From an uncultured virus (IMG/VR IMGVR_UViG_3300005077_000019) (taxonomy: Duplodnaviria > Heunggongvirae > Uroviricota > Caudoviricetes), in the IMG/VR virus record IMGVR_UViG_3300005077_000019: a stretch of DNA of 64,000 bases; one strand, given 5' to 3'. The position numbers and the translations under genes are program-made. This document shows positions 35,037 to 36,732 of this stretch, piece after piece. The notes under the pieces are model-generated. The model had not been told where the DNA came from. It did no database searches and worked only from the letters and a program-made list of their open reading frames with translations. Position 1 is the first letter of the stretch; every line of letters begins with the position of its first letter.

Positions 35037-35222
35037 CTAGACGTCGGTGCCCTTGACGGTCTTCCGGCCGTTGGCCTGACAGCGCTCCACGGCCAGGTCG
35101 AGAAGGCTGGTCACGCGCTTGCTGAGGGCTTCGGCCACGTCACCGCCCACGTTCAGGTCGCCCTTGCTCTTGATGTACTCCTTCACCTTCGACGTGATCA
35201 CCAGGATCATCTGCTCTTCCAT
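35037..35222 (-). CDS. Bacterial histone-fold protein (Bd0055/HMf-like)
   Basis: LVITSKVKEYIK..NVGGDVAEALS..AVERCQANGRKTVKGTD. Confidence 0.85.
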   Translation of the reverse strand: MEEQMILVITSKVKEYIKSKGDLNVGGDVAEALSKRVTSLLDLAVERCQANGRKTVKGTDV

Positions 35223-36033
35223 CTTGTCCTCCACTGGTTGGTTGTTGCGCCGCAGCCTCTGCGGCGGATTGTGCTTCGGCCAGTAGTCTGGCTTTCCGCT
35301 TGGACCCATCGAAGTCCGCCTCGAAGTCCTCGAGGCTGATGTCTCCCCTGTCGAAGCGCACCCAGAAGTTGGCGAGCGTCTCCAACGACTGGGCGATCTG
35401 GTAGGCCTTCAGCTTGCCCTGGTTGTAGAGTGCCTCTGCTACCACCTGCAGGGGCTTCCGGATCATGGGGATCTGCTGCGCGATAGGGTAGCACTGGACA
35501 TCGATCTTCACCTCGATGGTCACCGGCTCCTCCTGTTCGTGGGGAAGGAGCTTGCGGGGCGCAGCATCGTCTTCCAACACAGTCGAGATGCCAGCGGCAT
35601 CTCGATTGCCAGCCGGACGCTCTCCCTCATGATCTGACGGCATACACAACGTCTCCATGCTTCTTCACTCCCTCCATGCTTGGGCGGCGTGTACTTCCGA
35701 TCGCTGCAGTGGAATGATCCGCCGCGTAAGTGCCAGCAGTAGGTTCTGGGGACTGGCCCCACGACTCGATGCGCCTCCGCCTCCTTCGGCTCGTCGTTCA
35801 GGTCTACGAAGGTCTGAAGCGATAGCGTAGCTTCCCAGAGGGCGACTGTGAAGTCTCCGCCGAGACACCTGAAGAGGGACAGGCTGTGTGGTAGTGGTCC
35901 GTGACACGGATGCAGCCAGTCGGCCGACTCCGCGTCCGTCCACTCTCCATAGTCCGGGATGGGCAGTTCTCGGACGAACTCGATCGTAAGCTCCATGACC
36001 TCCTCTGGCTAGGTGTTGGGATGAACTGTACTC

Positions 36034-36075
36034 CCCTTATGCCACGCAACTCGATCGAATTCCATGGCATAAGGG
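36034..36075. promoter_or_regulatory. Symmetric divergent promoter
   Basis: cccttatgcca-N8-GATC-N8-tggcataaggg. Confidence 0.65.
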
Positions 36076-36186
36076 CCATGTCATTCGACGCAGAAAGTTG
36101 GCTAACGATTGTTCACTTTCTCTCTTGACACGACTGATCTATGTGGTCATTCTGTTCAAGGCCGAGACGATCAACTGGAGGAGAAG

Positions 36187-36732
36187 ATGAAAGCGTACAA
36201 GTTGGATCACATCAAGGTCATGAAGGTGCTCGGATCGGACGTCCCCAAGCGTCCGGCGTTCAAGGTCTCCGACATCGTCACCGTGGGGTTCAAGGGGCAG
36301 GACAACGCCGACCGGCGCGTGCGGAACGCGTTCCGGAAGCTGCGCAACGACGATCTCGTGGAGATCTGCGACCGCGGCGAGTACCGGCTGCTGCCCGGTG
36401 GCGTGAAGCAGGTGCAGCAGTGGCAGAAGGACGGCTGGCCAACGGGCAAGGAGTCGGCCGTGAAGACCGCGGCCAAGAAGCCGGCCAAGAAGGCGAAGAA
36501 GGCGCCGGCCAAGAAGGCGAAGTCGGCGAAGAAGGCCACCCCCAAGAAGGCCGCGCCCAAGAAGGCCAAGCCGACCAAGGCCGAGGCGCCCAAGAAGGCC
36601 GCCCCGAAGAAGGCCCCCAAGAAGGTCGACATGAAGAAGGCGGCGGGCAAGAAGGCTCCCGCCGAGGGCAACGGGGTCAACGCCAAGACGCCGCCGGAGC
36701 AGGGCGCGTCGGCCTCGCAGCTCGCGTTCTGA
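36187..36732 (+). CDS. Histone H1-like protein (putative winged helix plus K/A/P-rich tail)
   Basis: Repeated AKKPAKK/APKK tail after globular N-terminus. Confidence 0.75.
   Translation: MKAYKLDHIKVMKVLGSDVPKRPAFKVSDIVTVGFKGQDNADRRVRNAFRKLRNDDLVEICDRGEYRLLPGGVKQVQQWQKDGWPTGKESAVKTAAKKPAKKAKKAPAKKAKSAKKATPKKAAPKKAKPTKAEAPKKAAPKKAPKKVDMKKAAGKKAPAEGNGVNAKTPPEQGASASQLAF

Follow-up and report, generated by a model that had tools for sequence, protein, structure and literature searches.

A predicted face-to-face-type histone and a candidate winged-helix nucleoid protein beside a mirrored, promoter-like repeat in a large tailed phage

Alpha3 histones fall into several categories, of which face-to-face (FtF) tetramers make up 83% (Schwab et al., PMC11390915). 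The same work defines a small 'bacterial dimer' group around HBb by the lack of logo residues R48 and N52, describes 'phage histones' of the A0A2E7QIQ9 type, which have a C-terminal tetramerisation helix and no RxTxxxD motif, and notes alpha3 histones in 'some bacteriophages'. Stable tetramers are formed by HLp and wrap about 60 bp of DNA; its R49, N53 and R55 are listed as residues that tetrameric bacterial FtF histones conserve (Hu et al., PMC12701072). R45 of HTkC makes a bridge to the carboxylate at the C-terminus of the opposing dimer, and the R45A mutant is a dimer (Schwab et al., bioRxiv 10.64898/2025.12.06.692711). Caudoviricetes in IMG/VR carry both face-to-face (VFFH) and Bd0055-like (BBVH) histones, VFFHs being described with an N-terminal tail that is rich in Lys and 5-40 aa long (Liu et al., bioRxiv 10.1101/2024.12.06.627149). 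The locus analysed here (positions 35037-36732) lies in a 64,000-nt stretch of IMG/VR record IMGVR_UViG_3300005077_000019, hereafter the window, and consists of four genes and a structured 190-nt spacer (35997-36186). It includes a gene for a 61-aa histone on the minus strand and a divergent gene for a winged-helix protein with a polycationic tail. As a whole, the locus is best explained, with moderate confidence, as encoding an accessory FtF histone and a core winged-helix/polycation DNA organiser that would be jointly switched on.

The histone open reading frame (ORF; 35037..35222, minus strand) contains LVITSKVKEYIK and ANGRKTVKGTD, patterns by which the original prediction, made from the letters of the sequence, had recognised a histone-like protein; database searches bear this recognition out. 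In phmmer searches of the Protein Data Bank (PDB), the protein matches HBb/Bd0055 (8cmp, E 9.1e-10), HLp (9qt0, 2.1e-9) and HTkC (9f2c, 1.6e-6), and nothing significant besides solved bacterial and archaeal alpha3-truncated histones was found. A profile from 28 homologues reaches E 4.9e-19 to HBb and HLp, and matches classical archaeal histones at E 1e-3 to 1e-5. The score of the protein against Pfam CBFD_NFYB_HMF is 20.3 bits, slightly below the cut-off of 21.4 bits.

Structure searches, proposed in the original prediction along with profile searches, find a histone fold; the outcome named there as a refutation, the lack of any predicted histone fold, thus did not occur. An AlphaFold model built on 28 sequences has a predicted local distance difference test score (pLDDT) of 92.9, with alpha1 at residues 10-19, alpha2 at residues 29-50 and a one-turn alpha3 at residues 58-60. 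Foldseek superposes this model on 9qt1, 9ezz and 9f2c at template modelling (TM) scores of 0.84-0.91 with an rmsd (root-mean-square deviation) of ~1 A. The nine best PDB structure matches are all HLp, HBb and HTkC chains (TM 0.82-0.91), and nucleosomal and NF-Y histone folds rank next (TM 0.5-0.7); the BFVD viral structure library holds no match at E <= 0.001. The residues of the RD clamp (RxTxxxxD), R53, T55 and D60, are present and are invariant in 28 of 28 rows of the homologue alignment (A3). The 61-aa protein is confirmed, by homology and by its predicted model, as an alpha3-truncated prokaryotic histone.

The class of this histone is indicated by the residues that correspond to the tetramer interface. 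In HMMER alignments, R47, N51, R53, T59 and D60 face R49, N53, R55, T61 and D62 of HLp, and R47, which is invariant in alignment A3, faces R45 of HTkC. The chain stops at V61, one residue past the clamp Asp D60, as do 27 of the 28 rows of A3, and HLp likewise ends one residue past its clamp Asp (D at chain position 64 of 65). In HBb, Ser and Asp stand at the positions of R47 and N51 of the phage histone, and the chain runs five residues longer past the clamp Asp. Because R47, N51, R53 and the chain end match HLp whereas HBb differs, the histone is assigned by sequence to the FtF type (the VFFH class of Liu et al.) rather than to the Bd0055-type dimer suggested in the original prediction. In addition, six of nine DNA-contact residues given for HLp (PMC12701072) are identical in the phage histone (S11, K12, K14, K18, G27 and T55).

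Two other classes were considered and not adopted. The 'bacterial dimer' class of Bd0055/HBb (Bdellovibrio bacteriovorus; 8CMP, 8FVX) shares the alpha3-truncated fold, SKVK and GRKTV with the phage histone and is its best sequence match, but is defined by the lack of the two residues that are present here as R47 and N51. The 'phage histone' class of Schwab et al. (2024), the VTTH class of Liu et al., has in common an alpha3 fold in phages; it is ruled out since the 61-aa chain ends after alpha3 with no C-terminal extension and keeps the RxTxxxD motif. HLp (Leptospira perolatii, PDB 9QT0-2) and HTkC (Thermococcus kodakarensis, 9F2C) share with the phage histone the fold (TM 0.84-0.91, rmsd ~1.1 A), the length class, the chain end, the RD clamp and the Arg/Asn/Arg of the tetramer interface, with Glu for Asn in HTkC. 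The phage histone differs from both in being phage-encoded rather than cellular, at 36-40% identity, and its tetramer and DNA wrapping are predictions.

Several points weigh against the FtF assignment. Similarity to the dimeric HBb (E 9e-10, 41.7 bits) equals that to HLp (2e-9, 40.6 bits), identity in fold alignments is 44-45% to HBb and 40% to HLp, and the quick tree described below does not settle which of the two groups it joins. The Glu of HTkC at the interface Asn position means that the Asn marker is not universal, and A50 and V61 of the phage histone replace the HLp interface residues S52 and F63. The tetramer of the phage histone is itself a prediction from its residues.

The histone gene starts at an ATG at position 35222 with GGAGGA ahead of it, has a GC content at third codon positions of 0.87, and closes a leftward unit in which orfB and orfA come first; as the third, distal gene it lies ~0.8 kb from the inverted repeat described below. 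It may alternatively be read as 90 aa from an ATG at 35309, an extension that is absent from the 65-aa relative P0002.

The divergent gene (36187..36732, plus strand; GGAGGAG ahead of the ATG) encodes 181 aa, and here, too, the original description of a globular domain followed by a KAP-rich tail holds. The winged-helix domain comprises residues 1-87 (36187..36447, plus strand). In the model, residues 1-85 (pLDDT 80-91) form a helix, a strand, two helices, a hairpin and a further helix, the winged helix carrying one extra helix after the wing; the rest of the protein is disordered (pLDDT below 55). The tail, encoded with the stop codon at 36448..36732 (plus strand), comprises 93 aa (K 31%, A 28%, P 12%, D+E 5%; net +24). 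Among the Foldseek matches listed for the model there are exclusively winged-helix DNA binders (DpnI, MarR family, JetB/MukE, FOXN1, AF1382), and VIA-align gives Z 8.4-10.5 for AF1382, HrcA, Rio2, SarA, MarR family, ORC2, TubR, AspA and STIV F93. Atlas models of Fe_dep_repress, LexA and HTH_5 domains match at TM 0.67-0.78. A winged-helix profile run against PDB sequences gave insignificant rows only.

The term 'H1-like', used in the original prediction, is apt for the architecture: eukaryotic linker histones H1/H5 likewise join a single globular domain, a winged helix, to a long and disordered tail of Lys, Ala and Pro. It does not extend to homology. Pfam Linker_histone (PF00538) has no match at E <= 1 for the window protein or at E <= 5 for 13 family members, and the closest folds are the prokaryotic winged helices of MarR-like proteins, HrcA and AF1382. 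There is no linker histone among the 50 best VIA-align rows or the Foldseek matches listed, which is not an exclusion. The winged-helix fold is common to many unrelated families, so the likeness is weak, and the phage protein differs from H1/H5 in having an additional helix behind the wing and, at its C-terminus, a conserved peg, with no eukaryotic-type nucleosome to bind. The likeness to H1 is therefore one of design, not descent. The tail composition also resembles that of chlamydial Hc2 (Pfam PF07382), as a compositional match at 17.5 bits, far below the 40-bit cut-off. Hc2 is not known to have a winged-helix domain.

A word search in 5.8 billion proteins found five members of the winged-helix/polycation family, and a profile scan of 1.84 billion representatives found 49 at E <= 1e-10 and 65 at E <= 0.001. 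R43, R46, N47, R50 and R53 in the recognition helix and the wing motif RGEY are invariant in 17 family sequences. The tails vary from 27 to 174 residues and are always basic (net +4 to +37). In P0072 (261 aa), AT-hook repeats (RRGRPPK; Pfam AT_hook) replace the Lys/Ala/Pro tail, and it can be argued from this substitution that the job of the tail is DNA binding. The window protein ends in a conserved peptide, ...GNGV...QGASASQLAF with terminal SQLAF, whose end (36715-36729) is a docking-peptide candidate described in the family (P0028-P0081) as [QT]-L-x-[FLIW]-COOH. A C-terminal [LI]-x-[FLIWMV]-COOH is present in 42 of 53 family members, 30 of which have Q or T preceding it. Conservation of the terminal peptide after a disordered linker suggests docking, and the peptide probably binds a partner protein. 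A clamp-binding or PDZ-type reading of the peptide was left as speculation, because it is one residue short of the usual clamp motif and no clamp gene is available. Family members from L008-L014 have an acidic stretch immediately before the C-terminal peptide. This small family, which has ~49 cluster representatives and belongs to no Pfam or PHROG family, is a candidate for a phage nucleoid protein.

Comparison of related loci indicates that the two genes are not a fixed pair. Sixteen metagenome loci with the winged-helix domain were retrieved, making 17 with the window. The winged-helix gene typically has the divergent orfB on one side, in 14 of 16 loci, and a TSCPD gene downstream, in 13 of 16. 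A histone profile hidden Markov model finds a histone in two of the 17 loci, the window and L002, the third row (E 0.11) not being significant; eight histone-less loci have 3-10 kb on the relevant side, and the shortness of several others allows no judgement. Beyond orfB, relatives have a small Cys-rich ORF and, 1-2 kb away, a ParB-like gene; in the window this variable slot is occupied by the histone and a 13-kb tRNA array. In L002, orfB and the histone have a tRNA-like sequence between them (L002:300-552), and the histone adjoins tRNA genes in both histone-bearing loci.

Whole viral records give a similar picture. Alpha3 histones were found at six IMG/VR loci, of which only one, L098 (the record G001), has the orfB/winged-helix pair, 2-3 kb off; the other five have no winged-helix relative within 6 kb. 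Conversely, none of five further IMG/VR records with the winged-helix gene has a histone at E <= 0.01 (positive control G001, 2.5e-20). The completeness of these five is 75, 100, 71, 89 and 21%, and the 100%-complete record has no histone match even at E <= 1; two of the five are the same contigs as L011 and L013, judged by equal length and range. A histone 85% identical to that of the window (P0002) and a winged-helix protein 78% identical (P0030), each with a longest contig of 6792 nt, suggest a fourth co-occurrence. Because the histone is missing from most related loci and from the complete relative, gene content marks it as an accessory gene with no fixed partner, whereas the winged-helix/orfB/TSCPD block is the core of the lineage. 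The 'kit' of histone and H1-like protein envisaged in the original prediction is not upheld by this distribution.

The spacer between orfB and the winged-helix gene contains a perfect 11-bp inverted repeat (36034..36075; CCCTTATGCCA-N20-TGGCATAAGGG). Both arms are outward-facing copies of TGGCATAAG, at 36044->36036 on the minus strand and 36065-36073 on the plus strand. The minus-strand copy sits 40 nt ahead of the orfB ATG, and the other faces the winged-helix gene. Both proteins had originally been placed at the flanks of a symmetric promoter; the symmetry stands, but the left flank is occupied by orfB, the histone being the third gene.

The motif TGGYATAAG occurs at seven sites in the window (8162, 17788, 25551, 29579, 36036, 36065 and 54133), compared with 0.19 expected, and none of 100 shuffles reached seven. 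The site at 8162 (minus strand) is 24 nt ahead of a Shine-Dalgarno sequence and ATG, that at 29579 (plus) precedes a tRNA cluster, and that at 25551 (plus) precedes the stretch after the first tRNA block; most copies have GATC 5-13 nt upstream. In six of six aligned related loci, the arm cores CTTAT.CC and G.ATAAG do not vary, nor does a TTGACA. The exact inverted-repeat pattern is absent from the other loci, where a degenerate form is found, and the layout recurs in L002, L004, L007 and L008. G001 has CTTATRCC six times in 59.8 kb, its histone gene has its own GGTATAAG ~26 nt upstream, and in L002 GGGTATAAAG precedes the histone. The motif resembles an extended -10 element (TGn + yATAAG) and probably represents a phage promoter class, and the repeat at 36034-36075 is read as two back-to-back promoter elements of this phage-wide class. 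As its arms share one promoter class, it would turn on the winged-helix gene and the histone operon at the same time.

A sigma-70-like promoter candidate, TTGACA-N17-CATTCT (36125..36153, plus strand), lies before the winged-helix gene and includes the TTGACA that is invariant in the aligned loci. The pattern TTGACA-N17-CATNNT occurs twice in the window (0.05 expected), the second time just after the histone stop and before tRNA-Met. The consensus promoter scan missed the candidate at 36125-36153, the -10 of which matches at three of six positions.

Some observations tell against these promoter assignments. TGGYATAAG has no T at the last -10 position and may not be a sigma-70 promoter, and the site at 54133 (minus strand) has no evident gene behind it. 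Co-transcription of orfB, orfA and the histone is deduced from gene order and from the absence of a predicted minus-strand terminator.

Taken together, the following mechanism is proposed. By homology with HLp and HTkC, two histone-fold dimers would form a closed tetramer, in which R47 would act like the equivalent Arg of HLp and HTkC, which makes a bridge to the opposite dimer at its free C-terminal carboxylate. The tetramer would bind DNA without sequence preference, with ~60 bp wrapped round its rim; coating or compaction of DNA, be it that of the phage or of the host, is the natural reading of its role by analogy. One arm of the mirrored promoter would transcribe orfB-orfA-histone, with the histone last, and the other arm, along with the sigma-70-like promoter, would drive the lineage-specific winged-helix protein. 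The disordered polycationic tail of this protein would add non-specific DNA affinity and charge neutralisation, and its short C-terminal hydrophobic peg would dock on a partner. Both DNA-organising proteins, which might cooperate, would thus be switched on together yet be separable, the histone having been acquired by some members of the lineage.

The main alternative is that the repeat serves as the operator of a dimeric regulator, which may be the winged-helix protein. This protein would then be a sequence-specific autorepressor or early-gene switch acting on its own inverted repeats, with the tail only raising affinity and the histone an unrelated accessory that chances to lie in the adjacent operon. 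Its nearest folds are indeed MarR-type, HrcA, DtxR-type and LexA-type repressors, its recognition-helix residues are invariant, and the gene is retained where there is no histone. The inverted repeat in the intergenic region is conserved, and several loci have a further inverted repeat on both sides of the TTGACA promoter (e.g., TTTTGAACAATCTAT-N21-ATAGATTGTTCACAA in L013). However, these bracketing repeats vary among loci while the recognition helix stays constant, and tails of 27-174 residues with up to +37 and an AT-hook swap are atypical of a simple repressor and speak for binding of DNA in bulk. A promoter class also fits better than a private operator because the window has five more copies of TGGYATAAG, which precede unrelated genes and a tRNA cluster. 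The regulator explanation is therefore regarded as possible but rather unlikely.

A role of the winged-helix protein as a segregation or replication adaptor is more doubtful. According to this explanation, its winged helix would bind a centromere or an origin, the L-x-F peg would recruit a motor, clamp or polymerase, and the mirrored spacer would be the cis site. The conserved C-terminal peptide (42 of 53 members) implies a protein partner, a ParB-like gene lies 1-2 kb beyond orfB in relatives (and at 20803-21750 in the window), and the structural neighbours include TubR, AspA (of pNOB8 partition) and the ORC2 winged helix. These three, however, score no better than dozens of MarR-type matches (Z within 2 units), the 190-nt spacer contains no iterated repeats of the centromere or origin type, and the G001 family member has no C-terminal peg.

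Within the preferred explanation of an accessory histone and a core DNA organiser, a closer cooperation can be conceived for the histone-bearing subset of the ~190-kb lineage, in which the resident winged-helix/polylysine protein would be the linker of the acquired tail-less FtF histone, neutralising and clamping the DNA between ring tetramers that would each wrap ~60 bp. The chance of this is small. If true, it would mean a two-component, nucleosome-plus-linker-like packing of replicating phage DNA, expressed from mirrored promoters, and a prokaryotic-virus analogue of core-plus-H1 chromatin built from unrelated parts. Its obligate form, a two-part phage chromatin in which a histone tetramer core and a winged-helix/Lys-tail linker are mutually required, is very improbable. 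The two genes are co-located, use the same promoter class and co-occur in three sequenced contexts (the window, L002 and G001/L098), with the fourth deduced from P0002/P0030; also, the phage histone has no basic tail of its own, and some cellular FtF histones carry an N-terminal Lys/Ala tail. Against mutual requirement stand the 15 of 17 loci that lack the histone, of which eight extend for 3 kb or more on the relevant side, its absence from all five further IMG/VR records, including those 100% and 89% complete, and the five of six IMG/VR histone loci with no winged-helix relative nearby.

It is highly improbable that the contig is cellular (a plasmid, an island or a mis-binned chromosome) and the histone a host chromatin gene: no capsid, portal or terminase gene was recognised within the 64-kb window, but this is outweighed by a 13-kb stretch of 45 tRNA genes interspersed with homing HNH genes, by mostly small orphan ORFs, and by a gene order in common with an IMG/VR record that has a terminase and a head protein. 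That record, G001 (L098; 59.8 kb, CheckV 33%), has at least 14 genes in the order of the window and likewise carries a histone, orfB and the winged-helix gene. Its terminase large subunit is recognised at E 7.9e-61 and its major head protein at E 9.2e-10. The tRNA genes extend over 22433-35000 (~13 kb) and cover nearly all amino acids, 44 on the plus strand and one, tRNA-Met, on the minus strand. PHROG and Pfam matches in the window include HNH, ParB-like (20803-21750), deoxynucleoside kinase, RNase HII, ligase-like and endolysin-like proteins. Because of the tRNA genes, the phage gene matches and the synteny with G001, the window is assigned, as originally proposed, to a phage, and by gene content it is part of the genome of a large tailed phage. 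The lengths of other IMG/VR members of the lineage are 134-191 kb, one 191-kb record being rated 100% complete.

Relatives of this lineage are distant. In GenBank phages, the window has no DNA relative except a tRNA, and neither the histone nor the winged-helix domain has a tblastn match. IMG/VR searches with single proteins gave no match, and the distant members were found by alignment-based searches.

In G001, a 1521-aa protein (L106:15192-19754, minus strand) matches several of the PHROG families for 'RNA polymerase beta subunit', at E 2.2e-22 for the best named one, and the lineage probably encodes its own multisubunit RNA polymerase; a 1265-aa ORF of the window (57437-61234) has no match. 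Within the tRNA array lie two HNH endonuclease genes (32800-33207 and 33231-33959), an FGE-sulfatase-like gene with a kinase PHROG match (31555-32685) and a ThiF-like gene (27450-28136). Elsewhere in the window are genes for a vWA protein (37766-38419; PHROG 7371, E 1.3e-60), which matches 217 phage records, a DnaJ-domain protein with an endonuclease VII-like N-terminal part (12434-13357) and a Cpn10/GroES-like co-chaperonin (47491-47859).

The remaining genes of the leftward unit are less readily interpreted. None of the four locus proteins has a significant PHROG match. orfB (35520..35996, minus strand), the divergent neighbour of the winged-helix gene, encodes 158 aa with the motif D-W-L-H-P-x-H-G-P-L-P and has tblastn matches in 14 of the 16 metagenome loci and in L098. 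It has no match in Pfam or in a profile search of the PDB, and Atlas structure scores (0.78) are at chance level. orfA (35140..35523, minus strand) probably starts at a GTG at 35523, which overlaps the orfB stop as GTGA; this is the simplest start, and the conserved part of the protein begins there. Its tblastn matches are in L001 (43% identity; a 107-aa homologue), L004 and L005, and no Pfam match was found. The unconserved tail of orfA overlaps the histone start by 83 nt. The open frame extends back to an ATG at 35658, so that it overlaps the 3' end of orfB by 139 nt (35520-35658); both frames match relatives by tblastn, and a frameshift product across the overlap may exist. A perfect GC-rich hairpin, CGCCGCAG-CCT-CTGCGGCG, lies at 35248-35266, between the conserved part of orfA and the histone start, and has no T-run on the minus strand.

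The gene that immediately follows the histone is that of tRNA-Met (34927-35000, minus strand), whose promoter-like site, TTGACA-N17-CATCAT, is at 35036->35008 on the minus strand. On the other side, the winged-helix gene is followed by the TSCPD-domain gene (36779..37312, plus strand; Pfam TSCPD, E 1.3e-9), with tblastn matches in 13 of the 16 metagenome loci.

Of the cellular relatives of the histone, 279 were found and 80 kept. The best, at 47-61% identity, come from Nanoarchaeota, Woesearchaeota and Iainarchaeota (DPANN), Asgard archaea, Planctomycetota/Brocadiaceae, Myxococcales, Pseudomonadota, Acidobacteriota and one Bdellovibrio. All 80 have the R...N signature, part of which was required by the search pattern itself. 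In a quick tree, the histones of the window, P0002 and P0003 form one clade (Shimodaira-Hasegawa-like approximate likelihood ratio test, SH-aLRT, 100), and those of L002 and L098 are elsewhere on long branches. The window clade falls within a weakly supported (77), unresolved group of mostly bacterial sequences, and a single origin of the histones of the phage lineage is neither shown nor excluded by the tree. The deltaproteobacterial-type host proposed in the original prediction finds no backing in relatives so scattered over archaea and bacteria, or in a tree that leaves the phage clade unplaced. A peptidoglycan-binding, endolysin-like gene suggests a bacterial host, and nothing finer. Among cellular sequences, two Woesearchaeota contigs from metagenome-assembled genomes (L046, L079) encode 115-aa tandem doublets of the alpha3 histone fold, and FtF-type histones with a Lys/Ala-rich N-terminal tail fused on were seen in Planctomycetota, Myxococcales and Promethearchaeia (L031, L044, L068).

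Because phage histones of the FtF type have already been surveyed by Liu et al., the histone is a further member of a known group. It has in common with VFFHs and BBVHs that it is a phage-encoded, cellular-type alpha3 histone, and differs in that MEEQM alone precedes the fold. With the single protein as query, the lineage of the window is not matched in IMG/VR, the database of that survey, where only distant members were found. A limited full-text literature search returned nothing relevant on phage H1-like or winged-helix lysine-rich proteins. Relative to the literature consulted, what is new is the lineage, the operon and promoter context, and the winged-helix/polycation family with its terminal peptide.

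Cellular FtF histones have only recently been shown to wrap DNA as closed tetramers, and phage copies are known from a survey alone. The locus provides a minimal phage example, with the FtF-diagnostic Arg/Asn/Arg intact, a defined operon and a candidate promoter. The winged-helix/polycation family newly brought out here belongs to the core of the lineage and carries a conserved candidate docking peptide. Natural comparison genomes with and without the histone make the question of what a histone does for a phage approachable.

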